Positions 37,153 through 51,924 of a stretch of 64,000 bases of DNA are shown in pieces. The translations under genes were made by a program, and so were the position numbers. Source of the DNA: Thainema sp. GTDB taxonomy: Bacteria; Cyanobacteriota; Cyanobacteriia; Phormidesmidales; Phormidesmidaceae. The stretch lies in NCBI GenBank assembly GCA_052168235.1, contig JBQLZK010000018.1, positions 1 through 64,000 of the forward strand, in the 5' to 3' direction. The notes under the pieces were generated by a model. The model ran no database searches. It was not told where the DNA came from and worked only from the letters and a program-made list of their open reading frames with translations. The first letter of the stretch is position 1. Each line of letters begins with the position of its first letter.

Positions 37153-37752
37153 GTGATTTCTTTGACAGACCTAATTTGGGCGCTCGTGGGCCTCTTTCTC
37201 ACAATTGGCGGAACGCTGATTGAGGCATTCACGACCAGTGTGCCTTGGCAATGGGGAGAAACAGGCGTAGAGTTTCAATCCCTCGGCGTCAGCTTCCAGA
37301 TTGGAGCCGTCCTGTTAGTTGGCTGCCTGGGTGGCAAAAATGCTGCGGCTATGTCCCAAATTGCCTATCTGGCCCTTGGGATTGTTTGGTTTGACATCTT
37401 CCAATTTCAAATTTTTGATCAGGGCGGCGGCTTAAGCTATATTCAGCAGCCCACCTTTGGCTATTTACTCGGCTTCATTCCAGGCGCATGGATCTGTGGT
37501 TATTTTGCCTTTCAGGAGCGCCCCAAGCTGGAAATTCTAGGTTTCAGCTGCCTGATGGGACTACTCGCCATTCATGCTGTTGGGCTGGTGTATCTTAGTG
37601 CAGCCTACTTGATTGGCTGGGTTGATACATCCCTACTCTCCTATGGACAAGCAATTTGGGCCTATTCGATCTATCGCATACCTGGTCATTTAGTGATGGC
37701 CTGTATCATTACTGTCCTATCCTTTTCATTGCGCCGATTAATGTTTTATTGA
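37153..37752 (+). CDS. bioY: Biotin transporter BioY
   Basis: SFQIGAVLLVGCLGG and GGGLSY...PTFGYLLGF motifs; adjacent to lspA as is usual in cyanobacteria. Confidence 0.88.
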   Translation: MISLTDLIWALVGLFLTIGGTLIEAFTTSVPWQWGETGVEFQSLGVSFQIGAVLLVGCLGGKNAAAMSQIAYLALGIVWFDIFQFQIFDQGGGLSYIQQPTFGYLLGFIPGAWICGYFAFQERPKLEILGFSCLMGLLAIHAVGLVYLSAAYLIGWVDTSLLSYGQAIWAYSIYRIPGHLVMACIITVLSFSLRRLMFY

Positions 37753-39870: not shown

Positions 39871-41601
39871 CTAAATTTTGCATATCACAACGCGATCGCG
39901 CCCCTCTTGCTTCGCTTGATAAAGACCTTTATCAGCATAGGAAATCAACGACTCAATCGAACATTGATGTAGGTTAGAAGCACTCACGACTCCACAACTC
40001 AAACTAACATAAGGACTGATCTTTGAGGCTTTATGGGGAATACAAAGCGATTTGACCTGGTGACACATTCGCTCAGCAACCTGAAGTGCAACATCAGGTT
40101 GGATATCTGTTAGGACAACAACAAACTCTTCTCCACCATAGCGGGCCACAAAATCACCTCGACGAATCGCTTGACGCAAGGCCTGAGCCACTTTGGTCAA
40201 ACAAGCATCTCCTGCCTGATGCCCATAGGTATCGTTATAAAGCTTAAAATAATCTACATCACACAAGATCAGCGACAGATATCGGCTCGCTGCTAATTTG
40301 TCAGCCAAATATTGATCAAAGCAGCGACGGTTGGCAATTTGCGTCAAGGCATCAACATAGGCCAGTTGGTATAGCAAATGGTTATGATACACGACACTAA
40401 TCGTGGCAGAACCAAACATTGAAAGCAACGGCGTAATGCTCGAAAACCACCAGCCGAGTTGAAAGAGCAAAAAGTTAATCCCAAATAAACCAAAACTGCC
40501 AAATCCTAAAAGAAGAGGAATGCGCTTCAGAATCAAAGAACTACTCGATTGTTCTGGTTTGAGATTAAATGCAACAATTGCAGTCCCTATATTTGCGGCT
40601 ATTAGAATGAGGAACCACTCCAACCATTCAGGACAGCCAGTTATCCAACTTTGATCGTTTAGGGCAATATCTAATAGCTGCCGAGCCGCATGAGCATGGA
40701 TAAAAACGCCTGGACTTTGCTGTGCCTGATGATAAGACGGGGCACTGTAAGGGGTTGTAAACAAATCATTGAGACTGGGGGCGGTCACGCCAATGAGAAC
40801 AATGCGATCGCGAATTTGTTCAGGCGAGACTCGATCCTGCATCACATCTAAAATAGATACCGTTTCAAATACCTGATTCGTAGCACGGTAGCCCAGGAGA
40901 ATTTGGTATCCCCGAGCATCAATGTTGGTATAGCCGCCGTCGTAAGACTTCAGAGGTTTAAGAACCGTATTTCCCAGCCGTACATGGTACGGTTCATCAA
41001 TTGAAACCTCTTCAGGTTTAATTCCCTGTTGCTCAAGGTAAATGAGCGCTAAAGCCGCACCAAAACTATATTGGGTCTGCGCCTGTTCATCCATTTGCAC
41101 GCTTACTAAGCTGCGCCGCACCACGTTATCTACGTCTCTAGGTAAATCTGCGATCGCAACTTGATTCTTCTGCGCCAACGTCGGCGGTGGCGCAACGGCT
41201 ATGCCCTCACCGACGGTCTCAACCCCAATCAAATTTGGAGTTGTCTGAAAAACTGTCTCTATTTGCTCTGTTCCAGGAGGAACTGGCAAATCGCGATAGA
41301 TATCCAAACCAATCGCACTCGGTGCATATGTTGAAATATTTTGAATTGTCTGAGCCAAATCTTCATCCGTTAAAGGCCAGCGCCCCAACTGGGATAGATC
41401 CGTCTCACTGATAGTTATAACTAAAAAGCGATGATCAGTCGTATGCTGAAATTGGCTTCTTAAGAAGCGATCGTAAAGCGATAGTTCTAGAGATTGAAAA
41501 ACACCCAAATGGCCTAAGCCGCCAATTAATGCTGTAGATGTCGCAGTAATCAGTAACAGCGATCGATACTGAAATAAAAATTGGCGGAGCTTAATCCACA
41601 T
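39871..41601 (-). CDS. CHASE2-domain diguanylate cyclase
   Basis: CHASE2 motifs (RWPLTD, IGLDIYRDLP, D.DNVVRR, IVLIG..APSLND.F.TP, PGVFIHA), three TM helices, GGEEF active site with RxxD I-site. Confidence 0.92.
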   Translation of the reverse strand: MWIKLRQFLFQYRSLLLITATSTALIGGLGHLGVFQSLELSLYDRFLRSQFQHTTDHRFLVITISETDLSQLGRWPLTDEDLAQTIQNISTYAPSAIGLDIYRDLPVPPGTEQIETVFQTTPNLIGVETVGEGIAVAPPPTLAQKNQVAIADLPRDVDNVVRRSLVSVQMDEQAQTQYSFGAALALIYLEQQGIKPEEVSIDEPYHVRLGNTVLKPLKSYDGGYTNIDARGYQILLGYRATNQVFETVSILDVMQDRVSPEQIRDRIVLIGVTAPSLNDLFTTPYSAPSYHQAQQSPGVFIHAHAARQLLDIALNDQSWITGCPEWLEWFLILIAANIGTAIVAFNLKPEQSSSSLILKRIPLLLGFGSFGLFGINFLLFQLGWWFSSITPLLSMFGSATISVVYHNHLLYQLAYVDALTQIANRRCFDQYLADKLAASRYLSLILCDVDYFKLYNDTYGHQAGDACLTKVAQALRQAIRRGDFVARYGGEEFVVVLTDIQPDVALQVAERMCHQVKSLCIPHKASKISPYVSLSCGVVSASNLHQCSIESLISYADKGLYQAKQEGRDRVVICKI

Positions 41602-41793
41602 TCTCGGTAAGACACATCAATTAGCACAGCACAAATGGTTTCTTAAAGCATTGTCATCAACCTGCTAAACTAAGAGTTCCCAATCTGGAGTTGAATGCAC
41701 GGCATTCAAATAAGTCTTTACAGAATGCTGCAAACCCAACAGTCCGAAAAGACTGTCTCTGAATAACTTCTAGACAAGAATAAGAAAATTAGA

Positions 41794-42540
41794 TTAACGT
41801 ACTCCAGAAGTATCTGATGCTAGCACCGCAGCTACATCACCTAAACCGACCGAATTCAACAGTGCTTTCACGAGAACAGTTTGCTGAGAATCCATAGACG
41901 CCTTCAGTGCATCAAACCAAATACCATGTTTGATGTACCAAGCAGCCTGTTCTACAGCAGACATCTGCTCAAGTTGTGTTAAGGTTGCTGCATCAATCGC
42001 TACCCGGCGAACTTGTCCCGTGATCACCGGATCATCTGGACGTAAGGATGTTCCACAAATCAGTGCAATTGACCAGTTATAGGATGTTCCAATCTCTAGC
42101 GCTGGGGCATCACCTGGCATCTGAATCATGATCAGGTCAGAGCCCGGAGTGATTGGAATAATAGTTTGATAATGACTTTCACCACTTTCCTTCTGGAGGC
42201 TCAAAAACAGCTGTGTCGCCGAGTTGCCTGAAATATGGGCAAAGTAAGTGGGATGCGCACGAGTTGTTAAATTTTGAGCAGACGAAGCAATAAGTAATTT
42301 CACGCTAGTCCCCTCAGCGACTGAACCAGAAGCGCAGACACCATCTCCACGGGATGCGCCACCGCTGGTTCCTCCCGGTGCTCCGGTTTGAGGCGGGGTA
42401 AAGCTATTGGCCTGGATAGCCTGAAAAACAGAGTCAGACTGGGCACGAACTGGCAGTGCTACTATGCTACCGAGCAAACCGAGCGATATACAAAATAAGG
42501 GAACCCGCTGGCATGACTTAAACAAGAGTGTTTTAGACAT
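41794..42540 (-). CDS. DUF928-domain secreted protein
   Basis: Signal peptide, FTPPQTGAPGGTSGGASRG..C, T..AHPT, LEIG..Y.W..ALIC, GIWFDAL and LLNSVGL. Confidence 0.88.
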   Translation of the reverse strand: MSKTLLFKSCQRVPLFCISLGLLGSIVALPVRAQSDSVFQAIQANSFTPPQTGAPGGTSGGASRGDGVCASGSVAEGTSVKLLIASSAQNLTTRAHPTYFAHISGNSATQLFLSLQKESGESHYQTIIPITPGSDLIMIQMPGDAPALEIGTSYNWSIALICGTSLRPDDPVITGQVRRVAIDAATLTQLEQMSAVEQAAWYIKHGIWFDALKASMDSQQTVLVKALLNSVGLGDVAAVLASDTSGVR

Positions 42541-42872
42541 AACGATAAAAGCTTATTCAAAGACTAATAACCCAACATATGCAGTCACACCCTATCTTCA
42601 AAGACTACTGACTCTTGGCGGATTCGGCAGTTTTATTTTTTCAAGGATATAAATAGTATACACGGATCCAGAATTAAGAAGCAATTGATACATAAATGTC
42701 AAGCAAAGAATTAATATTACCTATTCTTTTTGCGCCATATTTATGAATGCTTTACCCAACATTGACAGGTACTTTATGTAATTTGGGGACAACTCGATTT
42801 AGATAAGCATAAAGAATATATTGGTAAAAAATGAAACCTCTTTTGTCAGATCTTGCACTTAAACATTCCTTT

Positions 42873-42969
42873 TAGAGGTTTGTCAACGTTGTTTTGATGC
42901 GTTTTGAGGGTTGATACGCTGTGCTTTGCGCGGCATACCAACCCTCAAAGATTATTTGACGCAGCACTA
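42873..42969. mobile_element. Degenerate MITE-like element with internal hairpin
   Basis: TAGAGGTTTGTCAA ... TTGACGCAGCACTA (10/14 match); internal TTTGAGGGTTG...CAACCCTCAAA. Confidence 0.45.
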
Positions 42970-43025
42970 GATGTTTGCTTGGCAAGGTTCAGGATCTGAA
43001 ACTAAAGGATGAGATGATCAGTTGA

Positions 43026-45704
43026 TTAAGTCCAGCTGCCGACTAAAACGAAGGGTGCCCAATAGTAAGGGTGCTGATACTGTGGATCATTCAGGAGCCG
43101 AAGCTGGGCCTGTCTAAGCACTTCGCCCCGAGCTTGAGAGTCATCTTGGAGAATCTTGTAAAAATCTGCCATAAACTGGGCTGTGGATTGGTCATTAACC
43201 GACCATAACGTCGCGAGCGTGCTGCGGGCTCCAGACCGAATCGCTAACCCTGCTAAACCCAAAGCTGCCCGCCGATCGCCTGCTGCTGTTTCGCAGGCAC
43301 TGAGAACCAGCAGTTCAATCGGTTTAGCGCGTGGAATCTGGCGTGCCCCTAATAACTGGTCAAATTCTTGTACGCTAATAGGCTCTTCCCAACTCAAAAG
43401 AAACGTTTCGCGCGGATTTGAGCTAAAACGCCCATGCGTTGCAAAATGCACAATGGGATAATCATTGGCATTCAGTTGCTCAGTAATAGTAGGTCGGGTA
43501 AATTGCTCATTCAGCACCACTCTAGACGGTAGAGTTGTTGAAATTTGCTCAACTTCTTGGACGACACCGGGTAATGCTGCAAACCCTTGCCGAGCTTCAG
43601 TGATACCTCCAACTAATACTTGTAAATTAGTCTCTGCCAAGGATTGCGATCGCAACAACTGCAAACCGGGTGTAAATGCAATGCGATACTTCTCAACCAA
43701 ATAGTGTTCTCCGTCATACAGGGCAGCCATTGGCGCATTACGCAAAGTGCCGTCTAACACAAAAACTAGTGTGAGAACCTGATGTTCTGCAAGCTGAGGT
43801 TCAAATGGGCGAATCAACCAGTCGTAAATTTGGGCAGAAATATTCAGTCGCTGCTCATTGGAGAAAACGGGATTGAGCGATTGGAGATATTGATCCAATT
43901 GAGTTTCCACCTCGGCTGCCGTCAAAGCGACAGTATGATGCTGTAGCGGCTGGTTCGGTACAGATAAGACAACTTCGACCCGATCGGGCAGCACAATAGG
44001 ATAAAAAATGGCGGCTTGCGAGTCGATTTGGTCGATCCGCTGTGCGGCTGTATCGAGGCAGGCCGATCGAAAAAAGTTTTCCAATTCAGCGACTTGTAGT
44101 TCTTCAAATGTATCCTGAGCTTGGCGCAAATCGGCTTCGGAAGCGCCAAGTTGAATGAGTAAGTCAACTAAATCACGGTAAACGGGTTCTACGGTATCCC
44201 GAAAAGAAAACTGAAACTCGGCATTGGTCGCAACTAGATCTTGACGAACCTCTCTAAGTGTTTTGACCGCAGCACTATAAGATGCGATCGCATCTGCCCT
44301 GCGACCAGACTGAGCTCTAAAGATACGGCCCTGTTGCCATTGCCAACGGTAGGCAATCTCTGGCGAATTATTGAGTTCAGCCAGCATTAGTGCCTGAGCC
44401 GTCAAGCGTTCCGCAAATTCCCACTGTTCAGTCAGCTCATAAACCTGGCCTAGTTGCCCCAGAGCTAGCGATTGCGCACGCTCATCCTGCAATTGCCGAG
44501 CCAATTGAACTGCAGCTTCTAGATTCTGGGCAATGGCTTCAGGTGTGGTTAAAACGATTGGCGTTGCAAAATTTTCAGCATCGGCTTCAAGCGTGGCTGA
44601 ACTGGGTTCAGGGTCAGTTTGCAGGGTTTGGAGCAGCATAGCAGCAGCGTTGACCCGAAGATAAACGGTTTGACGACTAGCTGGTAAAGCGCCTAGATCT
44701 GCCAGTAAGTTGGGGATAAGCGGTTGTACCAACTCCCACTGCTGGGTTTCGATTAACAGTTTGATAAAAGCAACGCGTGCCTCCATTTGGGCCAAGGCAG
44801 TCGGTGCATACTGTGCTGACTGTTGGTAAAAATCCAATGCTGCGGCCCAATCACCAGCAATTTGGCTGGCCTGCCCCAAGTCATAAAAAACACTGCTGGT
44901 CAGGAGCGGATCGCCAAACTGTTGACTCAACGCTAAACTTTGCAGCAAAATCTCGTTTGCTTGCTCGATATTACCAGTCAAATACAACGCCGACCCCAGT
45001 TGCCGCAATCCGGTTGCTTTGACCAAGGATGCTGGGCTGTCCTGAAGTTCATTCCCCAGTCGTCGCAGCAATGCGCGAGCCTGACGATAGAGACCCAAGG
45101 TTTGCAGTGCTTGGGCTTGATTGAGCTTACTCCCTAAAACCCCAGCCTGATCGTCAGTCGCTCGATACGCGTCTGCTGCTACCTGCCATGTTTCATAGGC
45201 CGATTCTGCATTGCTCTGCGCCAGGTAAAGACTCGCCTGAGTATTGAGGGCATGCGCTAAGATCTGCTGGCTAGCTTGATCGAGTGATCCCTGGTTGAGG
45301 TGCTCTAAACTAGTTGCGATCGCACGTTCTGCAGCCTCAAAATCCCCCAGTTGCTGCTGAACAAGAGACAAATAGCTCAACGCTAAAGCAGTATTGAGGC
45401 GATCACCCCGCTGCTGAAATCCAGCACGAGCCGCTTGCCAGTAATTCAAAGCCTCAGCATATTGGCCTGCCTGATAAAACATTAACCCCTGATCCAACGC
45501 TTCTACTGGATCACTGGCTAGTTGGGCTATATTAGCCATTTCAGAGAAGGCAAACTCAGATAGCGCTGGGCGTACAATAGCCTGTGATGCAACCTCCGTT
45601 GAGATTGCAGGTAGGACTAGCGCAACCGTCAAGCTCATGAGCGCCAAGAGCAGACTGGAGCACCATCGAGGAAACCGGAGCAAACGCCAATACCAACGCA
45701 CCAT
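43026..45704 (-). CDS. TPR + CHAT-domain (caspase/separase-like) protease
   Basis: N-terminal hydrophobic segment, TPR repeats, VHFATHG and LVLSACETA catalytic His/Cys, LWSVND, HPYYWAPFVLVG. Start uncertain (45704-45743). Confidence 0.92.
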   Translation of the reverse strand: MVRWYWRLLRFPRWCSSLLLALMSLTVALVLPAISTEVASQAIVRPALSEFAFSEMANIAQLASDPVEALDQGLMFYQAGQYAEALNYWQAARAGFQQRGDRLNTALALSYLSLVQQQLGDFEAAERAIATSLEHLNQGSLDQASQQILAHALNTQASLYLAQSNAESAYETWQVAADAYRATDDQAGVLGSKLNQAQALQTLGLYRQARALLRRLGNELQDSPASLVKATGLRQLGSALYLTGNIEQANEILLQSLALSQQFGDPLLTSSVFYDLGQASQIAGDWAAALDFYQQSAQYAPTALAQMEARVAFIKLLIETQQWELVQPLIPNLLADLGALPASRQTVYLRVNAAAMLLQTLQTDPEPSSATLEADAENFATPIVLTTPEAIAQNLEAAVQLARQLQDERAQSLALGQLGQVYELTEQWEFAERLTAQALMLAELNNSPEIAYRWQWQQGRIFRAQSGRRADAIASYSAAVKTLREVRQDLVATNAEFQFSFRDTVEPVYRDLVDLLIQLGASEADLRQAQDTFEELQVAELENFFRSACLDTAAQRIDQIDSQAAIFYPIVLPDRVEVVLSVPNQPLQHHTVALTAAEVETQLDQYLQSLNPVFSNEQRLNISAQIYDWLIRPFEPQLAEHQVLTLVFVLDGTLRNAPMAALYDGEHYLVEKYRIAFTPGLQLLRSQSLAETNLQVLVGGITEARQGFAALPGVVQEVEQISTTLPSRVVLNEQFTRPTITEQLNANDYPIVHFATHGRFSSNPRETFLLSWEEPISVQEFDQLLGARQIPRAKPIELLVLSACETAAGDRRAALGLAGLAIRSGARSTLATLWSVNDQSTAQFMADFYKILQDDSQARGEVLRQAQLRLLNDPQYQHPYYWAPFVLVGSWT

Positions 45705-45708
45705 TTCT

Positions 45709-48300
45709 CTATCCTTCATCACGACAGCTTCCGGCAGAGACAAGATGACTTGCAGGTGGAAACATTTGGTTAGTAGGCATCGTAGCCACCAGCATCAAGT
45801 TTCCATTGTGATCTACAATCCACCCCCGTGCTTCAACTGGGCTTGTCTCAGTCAAGTCTGCTAATTCACGATCGCGACTGTTGAGAACTGCAGCTGATAC
45901 AGCAATGGATTTTTTGGGTTCTTCTATGGATGTGTTGGATGCGATCGCAGTGAGCCGCAGATCTTGCCAAACAGATTGATTCAGAATTACCTGACTTGGA
46001 TCAGCCGGTAGTCCACCTCGGCCAGCGATCACAAATTCATTCCCCGACAGTTGTTCACAGGTTGCGACAATTTGCTCTAGATTTTCTACCCGTTGCTCAG
46101 GTTCAACCCCTTGGCTTGGATCCACATCTGGACTGTTAATTTCAACTACCCCGCTAAACTCAGCGCCTAAAGCCGAAGAGGCCGTGATATCGCTGTCAGG
46201 AGTTAACTCTGACCGAAACTCCGTCCCAACAATGGCATTGGCCGTAACATCTACACGCCCCCCAAAATTGGCCTGAGCATTGGCCGTGATATCGCTATTT
46301 CTGAAAGCAACCAGCGCTTCCGTATCTAGCACAATATTGCCACCCGTAGCGCTACCTGTTGCGTTTGTACTGATTCGACTTTGATTTTGCAACAACAGGA
46401 GATCCGACAGGATATAGATATTGGCCCGATTTCCCGACACTGTGTCGGCAGTAATCAAGCCGTTGTCTAAAAAAATCCTGGCTACATCCAGGTTGATATT
46501 TCCAGCCGCGCCGAAACCCGGTGGAACCCGAGAAGTACTACTGCTAGGGAAATTACTGACATTAATGGTGGCACCGTCCAACACAGATAATTCCTCTGCA
46601 GTGACCGTAATAGTGCCTCCTGCGCCCTCTCCAAACAGTGCGCTGGCAAACAATCCACTCCGACCCTCTGACGTTTGGCCGCTGAGTTCAATGGTGTTAG
46701 CGTTGACAAATAAGTCGCCAGCCGGAGCTGAAAAACTTGCCGTGCTGGTTGCAATTTGTCCACCATTGGCAACACGAAGGCGATCAGTATCGATCTGTAA
46801 CGTTCCTCCAGCACCAGCAGGCGGAATTTCTGCTGCTGTTGTTAGAAGGCTGGGTATCGTTTGATTGCCATTGAAGTCTGAGCCGTTTGAAAATCCTAGA
46901 ACATCAACAGTTTGGGCATTGATGATGAAATTTCCAGCATTGCCAGGGCCATAAGTACGCGTACCCGCCTGAGCCCCATTTAAGACGCGCAATTGATGGG
47001 TATGAAGGACAATATCACCGCCCTGCCCTGTAACCCCAAAACCAACATTCGTCAAAATAGCGCTAGGCCCGATGGGAAGATCGCCAATTAGCTCAATGGT
47101 TTCTGCATTGACAATGATGTCTGCGCCTTGACCTTGGCCAAATATATCGGCGGTAATTTGAGCGCCATCCTCCACACGAAGAATGCCGACCTGCAAATTG
47201 AGCTGACCGCCTCGCGCTGAGCTCGTGGCCTCGACATCAACATTAATCCCCGATTGAATCGCGGCAATCAGGGGAAACGCAGAAATTGGTGGTGGAACAA
47301 AACCCGCTAAAAAGAGAGAGTCCGCTGCGATCGCAACATGCCCTCCCACACCTGTGCCGGTCGTATTAGCCAGCAGGTTTGAACCATCTAAAATTTGAAT
47401 ATCCTGTCCACGCAGATGGATTTGGCCACCACGAGTTGGAGCGCTGGTATCAATGGAAGCGGCATTAACCAAGCGAATATCGGCCAACTCTGCCAGACCA
47501 GCATAATCAAAGCTGTAGCCCAGACGGTTTGCCACCATTTCAACAGTGCCGCCAGCTCCAGCTCCTACCACTACGCGCCCACCAGGAGCCGTTAGGTTGC
47601 CGCCATCAAACACAACATCACCACCAATCAACGCTAACGTTTGGCCAGAAACCAGTCCTTGCGATCGCAGTGTGCGTAAATCTCGATTAATTGAAAAATC
47701 CGGATTGGTAAACAGGTTGTGTCCACCACCACGCACCATAATCTGTCCTGGAGTGCGCCCCAGTTGCAGCCCAATCGGAGCCGTCACCGTCAGTAAAGTC
47801 TCCCTTGTGCCAAACACGCTCCCATCCGCAAACTCAATCGCCTGTGCTGTGCTGCCCACAAATGAACCGCCAACGCTCAGAGTGGCGTTCTCACCTACAA
47901 CTAGACCGTTCGGATTGAGCAGAAACAGATCAGCATTGTTTTCAACCTGCAACAAGCCATCAATCGAGGTAATTTCGCCCCCAACGACTCGTGCAAACAC
48001 CCTTTGGATGCTGCCAGGATTAATCAGGTCAGGATTATTGCCAATGCGAAAAACGGCTGATCCATTCGTTGGAATTGAAAAGCGATCAAAGCTATGAAAT
48101 AAATTACTCCCGACTTCTGCTCCGCCCGTAATCGAACAGTTAGTGCATCCTGGTGCAACAACCGTCCCTGTTGAACCCACTCCTGCACTCGGAGCAATTT
48201 GTCCAAATGCTGCAACAGGACAACATACAAAGCCAATCGTGAAGCCAAGTAGCTTAGGGATGAAGGTAGCACTTGCGGCAATAAACTTACGCTGAACCAT
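45709..48300 (-). CDS. Filamentous-haemagglutinin-like TpsA exoprotein
   Basis: NLFHSFDRFSI and LFLLNPNG TPS secretion motifs, Gly-rich beta-helix repeats, C-terminal NSDITANA and FVIAGRGGLP. Confidence 0.9.
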   Translation of the reverse strand: MVQRKFIAASATFIPKLLGFTIGFVCCPVAAFGQIAPSAGVGSTGTVVAPGCTNCSITGGAEVGSNLFHSFDRFSIPTNGSAVFRIGNNPDLINPGSIQRVFARVVGGEITSIDGLLQVENNADLFLLNPNGLVVGENATLSVGGSFVGSTAQAIEFADGSVFGTRETLLTVTAPIGLQLGRTPGQIMVRGGGHNLFTNPDFSINRDLRTLRSQGLVSGQTLALIGGDVVFDGGNLTAPGGRVVVGAGAGGTVEMVANRLGYSFDYAGLAELADIRLVNAASIDTSAPTRGGQIHLRGQDIQILDGSNLLANTTGTGVGGHVAIAADSLFLAGFVPPPISAFPLIAAIQSGINVDVEATSSARGGQLNLQVGILRVEDGAQITADIFGQGQGADIIVNAETIELIGDLPIGPSAILTNVGFGVTGQGGDIVLHTHQLRVLNGAQAGTRTYGPGNAGNFIINAQTVDVLGFSNGSDFNGNQTIPSLLTTAAEIPPAGAGGTLQIDTDRLRVANGGQIATSTASFSAPAGDLFVNANTIELSGQTSEGRSGLFASALFGEGAGGTITVTAEELSVLDGATINVSNFPSSSTSRVPPGFGAAGNINLDVARIFLDNGLITADTVSGNRANIYILSDLLLLQNQSRISTNATGSATGGNIVLDTEALVAFRNSDITANAQANFGGRVDVTANAIVGTEFRSELTPDSDITASSALGAEFSGVVEINSPDVDPSQGVEPEQRVENLEQIVATCEQLSGNEFVIAGRGGLPADPSQVILNQSVWQDLRLTAIASNTSIEEPKKSIAVSAAVLNSRDRELADLTETSPVEARGWIVDHNGNLMLVATMPTNQMFPPASHLVSAGSCRDEG

Positions 48301-48490
48301 TTTTCGCTACATCACATCCATATAGATTCATTTCATCGCTAATCGATAGCCAGTAATTTCCGCATTGATGCACCTTTAAGGGAGAAAAATCAAAATTGCC
48401 GTTAATAAGACTAGACTGACTGTTAAATATCCCAAACTATCTTAGTCTCTCTACATTTCCTTGAATTTGATTCAAGAATTAATACTTGTG

Positions 48491-50002
48491 CTAAAATCGC
48501 TTGTGCCGCAATCGCCAACTGGCCATAATCATACCGACGAAGCCAAGAACCGATATCGGCTCGGGCACTGCAGTTGACTTAGCCTGATGAGCAACTAGCT
48601 TAAAACCTTCAGCATCTGCACGATTAACAGCTGATTGATCTAACGTTTGCCAGCGCATGTATTGCAGGATGTCCGATTCTTGCCACCACCCGCTGGCAGT
48701 CCATTCATAAACACTATTAATTTTGCCGTTTTGCCACCACCCGCTGGCCGTCCATTCATAAACTTTACTGTCTTGAATCATCTTGCCGACATCGGCTAGC
48801 CGATTAGCAGTCAGATCCTCTTCACGCGCTATCAAGTCTGCGAGGGTTGGCAATTCGATGCCTAACACGTCGCCCAAATCCATTAGCGACTGGTCATACA
48901 GATCTGCCAAATCTAAAATCGGCGCATCATCAGCGATATCCCAACCAATCACGTTCAGGGCCATCAGATCACAGTCTTTGACAGAACGCCGCTGGCCCAA
49001 GTCCAGCATCGGATCCATGATGCCAATTACATCTCCATCGCGCTGTTCCCAATGACTACCTTGAAATGAGTCAACTGAAGTGCCAGCCGACATTTCACAA
49101 TTGCGAGTTGCCCCTCCGTCCACGGAAAAATAAGCATCCTCACTCCGAGACAAATCGATAAAGTTCTTGCCCGCTATTTGACTATTAGAGGTATAGCGAA
49201 ATGCATCTAGTAGATAGGCTTGGTACTGGCTGGAGTTATTGAAATAGTTATAGCTGTAGTTGTAGTTATAACCATAGAAGCTACCGTGGCCGTAGTAACC
49301 AGTCTCAAATAGCCAGCCTGAACTACGCCACGGATCATCTAGAACAGCGTCTTGAGTATCAACAATACTGACAAAGCCAAGGTTATGACCAATTTCATGC
49401 ATGATCACGCTGAGAAAATCAAGCTGATTTTCTCCAGGATTTTGGGTGACATCATAATTCCAACTAATACCAGACGCTGAGGTCAAATCATTCATCAGGA
49501 TGACGCCATCTAGCCTGCTGTCATCGTTTGTATCTCCTAAACCAAGAGCTTTGGCATTAGCGCTTGTCAGATTAACACTGTTGATTCCTCCTGTGAACGT
49601 ATTGTCAATAATGCCTCGCAACTGCCGATTGTATTTACCGTCAACTGCCATCGTATTCACAGCCTGCCAATCTGTGTCAGATGCGGCATCTGCTCTTAAT
49701 GCTTTATACACATCGCCAAATCTTTCTTTGGCCTGAACGCCCGGTAAAGCACCGCCAATGACGCGATCGGGTAGAGCATTCGTCATCTCAATGTAGAGAT
49801 TGATTTCTGTTTCATCTGTTAAATAGGACGACCACATACGCCCAGCCGTTTCAACTACCAGCATCTGCTCGGCTGTTGTGCCAGGTGCATAGCTGAAGTT
49901 GAAGGTTACGGCATGAGCTTTGGGTACAGTCCATACAGCTATTGGAATAGTAGTTGCGATCGCAGTCAGAGCGCGATGTTTCCAACTAAAGCGAGTAAGC
50001 AT
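48491..50002 (-). CDS. Secreted Zn metalloprotease (NF038122-like) with PEP-CTERM-type sorting tail
   Basis: Signal peptide AHA|VTFNFSY, LTSANAKALGL, HEIGHNLGF, SHW and MDP motifs, C-terminal VPEP + TM + basic tail; ATG at 50002. Confidence 0.85.
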   Translation of the reverse strand: MLTRFSWKHRALTAIATTIPIAVWTVPKAHAVTFNFSYAPGTTAEQMLVVETAGRMWSSYLTDETEINLYIEMTNALPDRVIGGALPGVQAKERFGDVYKALRADAASDTDWQAVNTMAVDGKYNRQLRGIIDNTFTGGINSVNLTSANAKALGLGDTNDDSRLDGVILMNDLTSASGISWNYDVTQNPGENQLDFLSVIMHEIGHNLGFVSIVDTQDAVLDDPWRSSGWLFETGYYGHGSFYGYNYNYSYNYFNNSSQYQAYLLDAFRYTSNSQIAGKNFIDLSRSEDAYFSVDGGATRNCEMSAGTSVDSFQGSHWEQRDGDVIGIMDPMLDLGQRRSVKDCDLMALNVIGWDIADDAPILDLADLYDQSLMDLGDVLGIELPTLADLIAREEDLTANRLADVGKMIQDSKVYEWTASGWWQNGKINSVYEWTASGWWQESDILQYMRWQTLDQSAVNRADAEGFKLVAHQAKSTAVPEPISVLGFVGMIMASWRLRHKRF

Positions 50003-50105
50003 GAGCGTGAACTCCGATTTGACGACGAATAGCCATAACCAAAACACTTGAAATACCTACAGCTATGGCAAGCCTGATTGCTGCTGGTAGTAGATGCAGT
50101 ACGCA

Positions 50106-50486
50106 TTAGCGAGTACCCCCGCCCTGCATACGTCCAGGGAACTGGCTGCCGGGATGTTCCTGATTGAACACTTGTATAGTGCTGACTACTGCGTCATCTG
50201 CGGTTACTACGCTGAGGTCACCAGGCTGACAATTACCAAAGCGATCGGTCATATCGCAGCTCCGATGTGCTTGAAATGTTGAAGCAAGGTCACCATTGGA
50301 TATATCCAATAAGCTGGCGCGCCTAACGATTACAACTGCTGAGCAAGTGTCAGCAGTTGCACCGGAAGTGGAGCTGTAGCTGGCTGTGAATGCTTGTGCC
50401 GCTGATGGCAGCAAAACCCCAGCAGCCGAACTTGCCAGCAGCGCCAGCGCATATTGTTTGTGTTTCTTGTGTCTCTGTCGCGCCAT
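50106..50486 (-). CDS. Small secreted protein ending in PGRMQGGGTR
   Basis: Basic N-terminus, hydrophobic stretch and AQA signal-peptidase site; three Cys; first gene of the co-oriented cluster. Confidence 0.65.
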   Translation of the reverse strand: MARQRHKKHKQYALALLASSAAGVLLPSAAQAFTASYSSTSGATADTCSAVVIVRRASLLDISNGDLASTFQAHRSCDMTDRFGNCQPGDLSVVTADDAVVSTIQVFNQEHPGSQFPGRMQGGGTR

Positions 50487-51192
50487 ATTGCAAAACCAAT
50501 TGAGTTGAACACTGGTTGCAACTGCCCTAAAACCTCCGCCAAGAGTGAATCTAATAGGGAATAGACTCGATTCCAGATTGGGTCAGAATGGAATCGACAG
50601 CACTGAACATAGCGCTAGAAACACGGACTTTTTTGCGTGTTTATCAATACAACACTTGCATTATTAAACAGTAGATAACTTCCCGCAATTTGACCTAGTA
50701 AAGCTCATAAAAGATTTACTGATTACGGTAAGAACATGAGGTCATGAAGCTCAATGTCCACTCCAGAACTGACGAAGCCTAGTGACTATGACTACAAACT
50801 GCTTGAATATTATGAAACAGCCATACAGCCTCCGTAATTTCACGGCCTATGCCTCAACTAACAAAGCCTTATTTTGTATCAAATCTTTAATCAGCCTTTA
50901 GTGTCCTTTTATTTTTCTCTTACTTATTCTTTTTTGCTCGGCACAGTTTTCTGGATCTACATAATTTCCACAAATTTCATATCGCTTTGTTTTGAGCTTG
51001 TTGATAGATTTAAGTAAAAATCCGTAGCCCAGTCCTGCCAGATCATTTAAGCCAGACTCTACATAACGTTTTGCGTCAAGGTATAAACGTTTTGGTGAAA
51101 TGCTCCGTCCTCCCCTAAAACGTCCTAACCTAGATAGCGATCGCACAATCGCACTATCGAACTATTTACCGCAACATACCAACTATCTAACT

Positions 51193-51924
51193 ATGGGATA
51201 CGGTTTATATCTTTACGGCATTTTCCCGGCTCCAGGGCCGCAAAATCTAGAGCTTGAAGGTTTGGATAAGCAGCCCGTCAAGTCTCACACGATTGATAAA
51301 TTCACTTTTTTGTACTCGGAAGCCCAACAAGAACGCTACTTGGCGAGTCGGCGCAACCTGCTGGGCCATGAGCGGGTACTGGAGCAATCCATGATGGCTG
51401 GCCATCGGACACTACTGCCGCTTCAATTTGGACTAATTATCTCGGAGTGGAATGATGTCATTAGCCAGCTGATTCAGCCTAAACAGGAAGCACTCCAGCA
51501 GTTGTTTGCCAAGCTAGATGGACATCGAGAGGTTGGCGTCAAGGTTTTTTGGGAAGAAGCAGCCGAACTCGAAATGCTCATGGCTGAAAATGAGAAGCTT
51601 CGCGCTGAGCGAGATCGCTTAGAGGGTAAGAATCTCAGTATGGATGAGGTGCTATATATCGGGCAGGCGATTGAACAGGCCGTTCGCGATCGCAAAGAGG
51701 CAATCGTGCAAGTGTTTCAAGATGCCCTGACAGTGTTGGCCGTTGAATCGGTAGAGAACGACCTGCTCACCAGTGCGATGATTTACAACGCAGCGTATCT
51801 GATTCCCTGGGATGCTGAATCCAAATTCAGCGCCAAAGTGGAAGCACTGGATGCCCAATTTCATGACCGACTACGAATTCGCTATAACAATTTCACGGCA
51901 CCGTTTAACTTTGCTCAACTCTAG
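51193..51924 (+). CDS. gvpF: GvpF/GvpL-family gas vesicle protein
   Basis: LYLYGI, RRNLLGHERVLE, LLPLQFG, REVGVKVFW, IYNAAYLI and APFNF; ATG at 51193. Confidence 0.85.
   Translation: MGYGLYLYGIFPAPGPQNLELEGLDKQPVKSHTIDKFTFLYSEAQQERYLASRRNLLGHERVLEQSMMAGHRTLLPLQFGLIISEWNDVISQLIQPKQEALQQLFAKLDGHREVGVKVFWEEAAELEMLMAENEKLRAERDRLEGKNLSMDEVLYIGQAIEQAVRDRKEAIVQVFQDALTVLAVESVENDLLTSAMIYNAAYLIPWDAESKFSAKVEALDAQFHDRLRIRYNNFTAPFNFAQL

Follow-up and report, generated by a model that had tools for sequence, protein, structure and literature searches.

The described systems closest to the locus reported here are those of PatX, PatS and HetN. According to PMC12756182, PatX is a protein of 56 amino acids (aa) with a signal sequence, which is exported and cut by PatP to the C-terminal peptide HRGTGR. 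PMC7761841 places the pentapeptide RG[ST]GR at the C-terminus of PatS and PatX and in an internal position in the larger HetN. The locus lies in a window of 64,000 nucleotides (nt) of Thainema sp. (contig JBQLZK010000018.1, positions 1 to 64,000; "the window" is this whole stretch). Six open reading frames (ORFs), all on the minus strand, fill positions 39871–50486. The first of them, the small ORF P0001, ends exactly at the Arg of a motif that is internal in a DUF928 protein of the same cluster. The terminal position of the motif in P0001 and similar mini-proteins, and its internal position in DUF928 proteins, parallels the PatX/PatS and HetN arrangement.

The motifs themselves are different. 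PatX and PatS carry RG[ST]GR, whereas P0001 ends QGGGTR and the motif of the wider class is GGGTR after PGR(R)x. P0001 is not a PatX, since it ends in GGGTR instead of RG[ST]GR. HetR, on which PatX acts, is a cytoplasmic protein, whereas the likely partners of the mini-proteins, CHASE2 and TPR-CHAT proteins, are periplasmic. No flanking ORF scanned at 34.5–57.3 kb matched anything named HetR, in a scan that included no search aimed at hetR. Set against PatX and PatS for size and export signal, P0001 has 126 aa, an N-terminus that passes a signal-peptide heuristic and a predicted start codon. The DUF928 proteins (PF06051) share a signal peptide, a linker and the motif module with the mini-proteins. 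Unlike PF06051 proteins, the mini-proteins lack the whole DUF928 domain, which is a beta-sandwich and a helical bundle. The domain (Pfam PF06051 model, 184 positions) is absent from P0001, which is therefore not a member of the DUF928 family.

P0001 is read here as an exported pre-peptide of an undescribed cyanobacterial class that is made only of the DUF928 N-terminal module and ends at the motif Arg. This reading is tentative and is given slightly less than an even chance. The initial annotation had observed that the protein stops exactly at GGGTR and that this ending mirrors the PGGTSGGASR of the DUF928 protein in the cluster. Both observations are correct. The tail of P0001 reads ...HPGSQFPGRMQGGGTR and is followed directly by TAA, and residues 54–65 of the window DUF928 protein are APGGTSGGASRG. 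The likeness extends to the family as a whole: when 20 DUF928 proteins are aligned, no more than 9 columns do not vary, and the motif Pro and Arg (P55 and R64) account for two of them. The last eleven residues of P0001, FPGRMQGGGTR, match the N-terminal DUF928 motif P-x(5)-[GS]-G-[GAS]-[ST]-R and, in the same order as in that family, come after a signal-peptide-like N-terminus.

The genome contains eight DUF928 paralogues. Their N-terminal motifs include LPGRREGGGTRG (C1), FPGRRVGGGTRG (C46), LPGRRASGGTRG (C12) and GPIRTAGGGTRS (C91), and the C21 paralogue has five tandem APxQAxGGASR units. The P0001 tail is nearest to FPGRRVGGGTRG and LPGRREGGGTRG and not to the variant in the window DUF928 protein. 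Among 39396 stop-to-stop ORFs of 60 aa or more in this 7.5-Mb genome, P0001 is the only one that ends in GGGTR, and 22 have GG..R endings. The wider pattern P.{1,2}[RKQ].{1,4}GG[GAS][TS]R occurs ten times in ORFs of 50 aa or more genome-wide: seven times in four DUF928 proteins, once in P0001 and twice elsewhere. Because the ending is unique in the genome and the wider motif is concentrated in DUF928, a chance match of the tail is excluded. The tail either derives from the DUF928 N-terminal module or has been selected to match it. A translated search with the tail also gave a match at 37286–37333 (HPGSQLTGRLQSGS-stop-R, tblastn E 3.2), which lies antisense within BioY and is regarded as a chance match.

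In the model of the window DUF928 protein, the motif region (residues 51–68) has a predicted local distance difference test score (pLDDT) below 50 and no secondary structure, and it precedes the beta-sandwich and helical bundle. Among known folds, the model comes closest to the C-terminal domain of MtxA, 4Z29 (Foldseek E 1.3e-5; TM 0.39 by query and 0.50 by target). This likeness, at 17% sequence identity, concerns only the DUF928 domain that P0001 does not have. The closest DUF928 relative is P0007 (72% identity). Across 171 genomes of the order, 35 sites carrying the strict motif were read row by row, and none has a stop in the ten codons that follow. In the C21 paralogue and P0010–P0013 the motif is repeated: three to six units of about 22 aa stand in tandem, and each ends GGASR-G. 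Yeast alpha-factor and neuropeptide precursors are polyproteins with repeated units that are cut at basic residues. The tandem units of C21 and P0010–P0013 resemble such precursors; the setting here is bacterial and periplasmic, and the processing is putative.

The initial annotation proposed a search for secreted proteins that end in GG[GA][TS]R, and these form a recurrent class. Fourteen further small ORFs (L053, L054, L078, L086, L104, L116, L126, L180, L181, L182, L184, L185, L190 and L192) have hydrophobic N-termini and stop straight after ...RRxG[GA]GTR, so that 15 distinct exact-Arg ORFs are known when P0001 is counted. One of them, L190, lacks an ATG and has an uncertain start. The tail common to the class is [FYW]xPPxxGxPxRRxG[GA]GTR. 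A mini-protein consists of a signal peptide, an unconstrained linker and the motif ([FY]xPPxxG)xPxRRxG[GA]G[TS]R, with the end at Arg; the signal peptide is predicted. The class is real and apparently undescribed, and its recurrence suggests a family of Arg-ended signal peptides or mimics.

The class was recovered by several searches. Back-translated PGRxxGG[GA][TS]R followed by TRR gave 14 matches in 401 Cyanobacteriia genomes, against none for the reversed pattern. Five of the 14 are true stops: P0001, L053, L054, L057 (the tail of a TPR protein) and L063 (a chance-like frame of 20 aa). The other nine have TGG and belong to a conserved secreted family of about 75 aa in which the motif directly follows the signal peptide. 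With one genome per species, PGRRxGGGTR followed by TAA or TGA was found at 59 loci, of which five are labelled cyanobacterial and one (L104) is in a low-GC metagenome-assembled genome (MAG). Apart from the TPR tail, each of these six is a small ORF whose N-terminus is hydrophobic. The remaining 53 of the 59 come from other, mostly GC-rich organisms; the 43 examined have a locus GC of 0.56–0.77 and short or Arg/Pro/Gly-rich frames, and were treated as chance. A metagenome scan added L126. When 26 genomes were searched with the L054 protein without regard to the ending, four of the five short motif-bearing ORFs (L054, L182, L180 and L181) stopped at Arg, and the fifth, L179, continued for 14 aa beyond it. 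When the pattern was relaxed, 57 genomes from a single family yielded ten matches, versus four for the reversed pattern; eight of the ten are credible mini-ORFs. Genome G550 carries three different exact-Arg mini-ORFs (L184, L190 and L192) on three contigs, so the class can be multi-copy within a genome.

Two further groups of sequences were seen in these searches. The family of about 75 aa (L055, L056, L058–L062, L065 and L066, in nine genomes) lacks the DUF928 domain and has the pattern MRQLTIGFSLL...REGVPGRRVGGGTRWTAPRLKP...LSALAFASRT.LP.SLKLKAIYG. Its gene is usually flanked by a PLD/HHH gene on one side and by one for a pyridine-nucleotide-disulphide oxidoreductase on the other, and the family has no Pfam or NCBIfam match. 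L057, which has the same sequence as L119, is a TPR-repeat frame of 159 aa between stops that ends ...EGRPGRRAGGGTR-stop and adjoins a TniQ gene. Its ending may be chance or may be the motif grafted onto a TPR protein.

Members of the class keep the tail while the linkers vary. L054 and L182, from different genera, are 49% identical over 62 aa and both stop at Arg. L192 and L185 come from a single genus, each from its own species. Between them there are 6 synonymous and 8 non-synonymous changes; the non-synonymous ones all fall in residues 6–39 and spare the last 18 residues. Both this pair and the strain variants of P0001 show a free linker and a fixed tail. The expectation in the initial annotation that the ending would be conserved in homologues is borne out for the L054/L182 and L192/L185 pairs; P0001 itself has no homologues. 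A hidden Markov model (HMM) of full-length DUF928 matches seven mini-ORFs and P0001 over N-terminal positions only (75 or lower), with E-values of 2e-7 for L054, 2e-5 for L126, 5e-4 for L053 and 6e-4 for L086. For P0001 the match covers only positions 43–73 (E 4.4e-3 in a small database). No remnant of the DUF928 domain was found in any frame of the seven tested mini-ORF loci or of the P0001 locus. On these comparisons, the mini-proteins are judged not to be fresh DUF928 pseudogenes.

For most loci the flanks examined were 1.5–2.5 kb long; for L180 and L182 they extended to about 6.5 kb at most. P0001 heads the window cluster, L180 lies between a trypsin-like peptidase gene and a TPR-CHAT gene, and L181 is 245 nt upstream of a co-oriented TpsB gene. 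Apart from these three and from L116, L126 and L104, the class members have unrelated neighbourhoods. FecR, a neighbour of L053, was considered as a module partner and rejected; the three FecR genes of the genome are away from the contigs and positions of the DUF928 loci. L116 adjoins genes for Terminase_6C and an Sf6-type small subunit, L126 adjoins a TerL ATPase terminase gene, and L104 is beside DUF932 and DUF4326 genes (Table 1). These three may be copies of the host motif that are carried by phages or mobile elements. A search for a portal gene that would mark L116 or L104 as phage found one only on another contig of one genome.

Table 1. Positions of the features of the Thainema sp. cluster and of selected loci elsewhere
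Feature	Sequence	Positions	Strand	Description
P0001, small ORF	window	50106..50486	-	126 aa and TAA stop at 50106-50108; ends ...QFPGRMQGGGTR; predicted pre-peptide (Sec-type signal peptide, variable linker, motif at C-terminus)
P0001 codons 1-32, MARQRHKKHKQYALALLASSAAGVLLPSAAQA	window	50391..50486	-	signal-peptide-like N-terminus, last residues AQA
P0001 codons 116-126, FPGRMQGGGTR	window	50109..50141	-	DUF928-type N-terminal motif, stop directly after
P0014, alternative short form M79-R126	window	50109..50252	-	48 aa, no signal peptide
Metalloprotease	window	48491..50047	-	NF038122 family, 5.3e-63; PEP-CTERM-like tail (VPEP-hydrophobic-basic)
TpsA-like exoprotein	window	45709..48300	-	TPS secretion domain, 2.1e-47
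TPR-CHAT caspase-like protease	window	43026..45743	-	TPR and CHAT, 6.6e-60; predicted exported
DUF928 protein	window	41794..42540	-	DUF928 domain, 1.5e-37; signal peptide, flexible tether with motif, beta-sandwich, helical bundle
DUF928 internal motif copy, PGGTSGGASR	window	42349..42378	-	residues 55-64; P55 and R64 invariant
CHASE2-GGDEF membrane diguanylate cyclase	window	39871..41601	-	CHASE2 and GGDEF domains; GGEEF present
Truncated DUF928 form	L035	168-335	+	ends ...GGGSRCI-stop, 1.2 kb upstream of giant NF038122-domain protein
Truncated DUF928 form	L134	833-1096	+	DUF928 cut 25 aa after motif
Truncated DUF928 form	L179	1839-2111	+	lipobox-like protein, end 14 aa past motif
Exact-Arg mini-ORF	L116	2390-2530	+	terminase genes adjacent
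Exact-Arg mini-ORF	L126	2001-2039	-	terminase gene adjacent
TPR-repeat frame	L057	1504-1980	-	TniQ gene adjacent

Several observations weigh against P0001 as an exported pre-peptide of this class. The linkage of such ORFs to CHAT/CHASE2-type loci, which the initial annotation had proposed to test, is partial: within the flanks examined, 3 of the 15 class members, including P0001, are beside CHAT or two-partner-secretion genes, and the rest lie elsewhere. A rough guess at the proportion to be expected is about 5%. P0001 also departs from the class. It has the PGR and the GGGTR of the full motif, the stop directly after the motif Arg and the hydrophobic, signal-peptide-like N-terminus, but it has RM in place of RR, no [FY]xPP element and a linker of 85 aa, as against about 12–45 aa in other members. 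Truncated DUF928 forms that end elsewhere exist, with 2 (L035), 25 (L134) and 14 (L179) aa after the motif. The body of P0001 has no homologue in 150 genomes of the same family, in 1.84 billion representative proteins or in 5.8 billion clusters. Protein collections record P0001 only as its own 48-aa piece M79–R126, in which the signal peptide is not included, and a GGAG is found 8 nt before the ATG of M79 with none before M1. With a codon score of -0.07, the ORF as a whole falls short of the 1st percentile for real coding windows (-0.004) and lies within the range of shadow ORFs (median -0.13). Near-identical strains in four metagenomic runs have nine distinct variants in P0001, six of them non-synonymous and three synonymous. 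The variant density in run X4 is about fivefold higher in P0001 (8 in 374 nt) than in the metalloprotease gene (4 in 956 nt). P0001 is a plausible but unproven, divergent member of the class.

Other searches with P0001 were negative. It has no match among Pfam families at E<=0.01 or at E<=1, and none in NCBIfam. Homologue searches with P0001 and with the short form P0014 returned only the sequence itself. Three matches in the 150 genomes of the same family (E 1e-3 to 9e-3) were set aside as noise; two of them contain internal stops. Look-alikes in a protein atlas reached a top score of 0.77 and gave no lead. An orthologous locus was absent at the DNA level among 20 relatives, and DNA of the P0001 region is not repeated elsewhere in the genome.

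The main rival explanation is that P0001 is a relic. It would be a decaying remnant of the 5' part of an earlier DUF928 gene (signal peptide, linker and motif), left by the rearrangement that brought in the metalloprotease gene, open by chance and without function. The orphan status of P0001, its non-coding-like codon score, the 6:3 ratio of non-synonymous to synonymous variants and their raised density all agree with decay. So do the occurrence of truncated DUF928 genes (L035 and L134) and the weak similarity of residues 89–126 to the N-termini of the C46 and window DUF928 proteins (E 0.29 and 62). Against a relic, no DUF928 remnant follows in any frame, reading through the stop gives no DUF928-like continuation, and P0001 has no DNA similarity to the DUF928 paralogues. 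The variants are unevenly placed, with all nine in codons 35–86 and none in the last 40 codons (87–126) in the one run that covers them. The frame is open and free of indels in all four runs, and the predicted signal peptide is intact. The exact post-Arg stop moreover recurs in the 14 other ORFs, some of which are kept across genera and species. The relic explanation is considered somewhat unlikely.

A second alternative concerns the start. The real gene could be M79–R126, which either encodes a cytoplasmic peptide of 48 aa or serves the metalloprotease operon as a leader or upstream ORF, with the upstream part untranslated. This is the sole form in protein collections, it has the GGAG before its ATG, and its codon score is better (+0.13 for codons 79–126, versus -0.20 for codons 1–78). 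The upstream part, however, encodes a signal-peptide-like N-terminus of a kind that only 21 of 2840 shadow ORFs (0.7%) have by the same test, which is a crude heuristic. Most other class members have hydrophobic N-termini, and a cytoplasmic peptide could not meet periplasmic partners. This alternative is very unlikely.

If P0001 is an exported pre-peptide, a mechanism can be proposed that follows the initial annotation in outline. In full-length DUF928 proteins, the same motif lies on a flexible tether before the folded domain, sometimes in tandem. DUF928 would be cut after the motif Arg by an Arg-directed protease that is itself exported; the candidates are TPR-CHAT and a trypsin-like neighbour. 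The cut would release an Arg-terminated peptide that is recognised by the module through CHASE2 or the TPR array, and recognition would set the c-di-GMP output. The mini-proteins would provide the same Arg-terminated end without a cut and could act as ligand, competitor or decoy. CHAT belongs to clan CD, which includes Arg-specific members. The His/Cys dyad of the window TPR-CHAT protein is intact, as the initial annotation had stated, and H770 and C817 do not vary among 25 homologues. Three features agree with a short linear motif in which Arg becomes a free C-terminus: the motif Arg is invariant and lies on a flexible tether, each tandem unit ends in R-G, and independent genes stop at that Arg. 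For these three reasons the outline of the earlier model is favoured. A natural C-terminus at Arg also fits Arg as the processing point in DUF928.

The motif could instead be a docking or sorting tag. It would remain attached and bind a partner in the periplasm, such as the TPR array, CHASE2 or a factor for export or tethering, with no proteolysis after Arg, and the mini-proteins would be competitive blockers or small cargoes with the same tag. The motif directly follows the signal peptide in DUF928 proteins and also in the unrelated conserved family of about 75 aa (...GVPGRRVGGGTRWTAP...), which is found in housekeeping neighbourhoods. It lies in a flexible tether, and TPR domains bind C-terminal peptides, all of which would suit a tag. 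A functional C-terminal Arg is the simpler explanation of the repeated exact post-Arg stop and of the tandem units that end in R-G, and the partner binding is only proposed. A tag of this type is distinctly unlikely. A complex prediction with TPR-CHAT residues 60–905 and mature P0001 (residues 33–126) had a score of 0.00 and weighs neither way.

The fuller form of the processing model is also unlikely as a whole. It holds that exported Arg-terminated peptides (...PGRRxGGGTR-COOH) would be the input of CHASE2/TPR-CHAT, that DUF928 proteins would be tethered or tandem precursors, that the mini-genes would supply ready ligands or antagonists, and that the terminase-adjacent L116 and L126 would be viral mimics. 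The literature searches turned up one paper that names DUF928 and none that connects GGGTR with cyanobacterial peptides.

The window cluster has the composition given in the initial annotation (Table 1). All four domains of the TpsA/TPR-CHAT/DUF928/CHASE2 envelope gene set are present on co-oriented genes, and the domain matches include E-values from 2e-47 to 8e-60. The likely start of the metalloprotease is the ATG at 50002. Strain variants in this gene number eight: six synonymous, I406V and a stop-to-Trp change. The last of these is at window position 48492, where the stop TAG is TGG in metagenomic run X2 (a single contig, depth 5.3), and it would extend the metalloprotease past its PEP-CTERM tail. 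A TpsB (ShlB/POTRA_2) partner for TpsA was not found among ORFs of 150 aa or more at 34.5–57.3 kb. The flanks of the cluster are unrelated, with YkuD and then lspA, BioY and PAP2 downstream, and GvpL/F and ABC-F upstream. A promoter and terminator scan of 49800–51200 gave matches that are no commoner than in shuffled sequences. The gap between the CHAT and DUF928 genes contains an element of about 100 nt (42872–42971) with at least 11 further copies in the genome at 78–84% identity, on C40, C16, C7, C14, C79, C30, C4, C106, C35, C1 and others. Some of it matches in inverted orientation as well, and a genome of the same genus has weaker copies. The element resembles a small dispersed repeat or a miniature inverted-repeat transposable element (MITE).

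The new element here is the Arg-terminated mini-proteins. Genes that stop at the motif Arg point to a concrete candidate peptide that can be synthesised. The exact-Arg stops also point to a definite candidate cleavage site in DUF928. If the reading is true, there would be a second cyanobacterial peptide-signalling system beside PatS/PatX, and this system would occur also in non-heterocystous lineages and possibly in phages.

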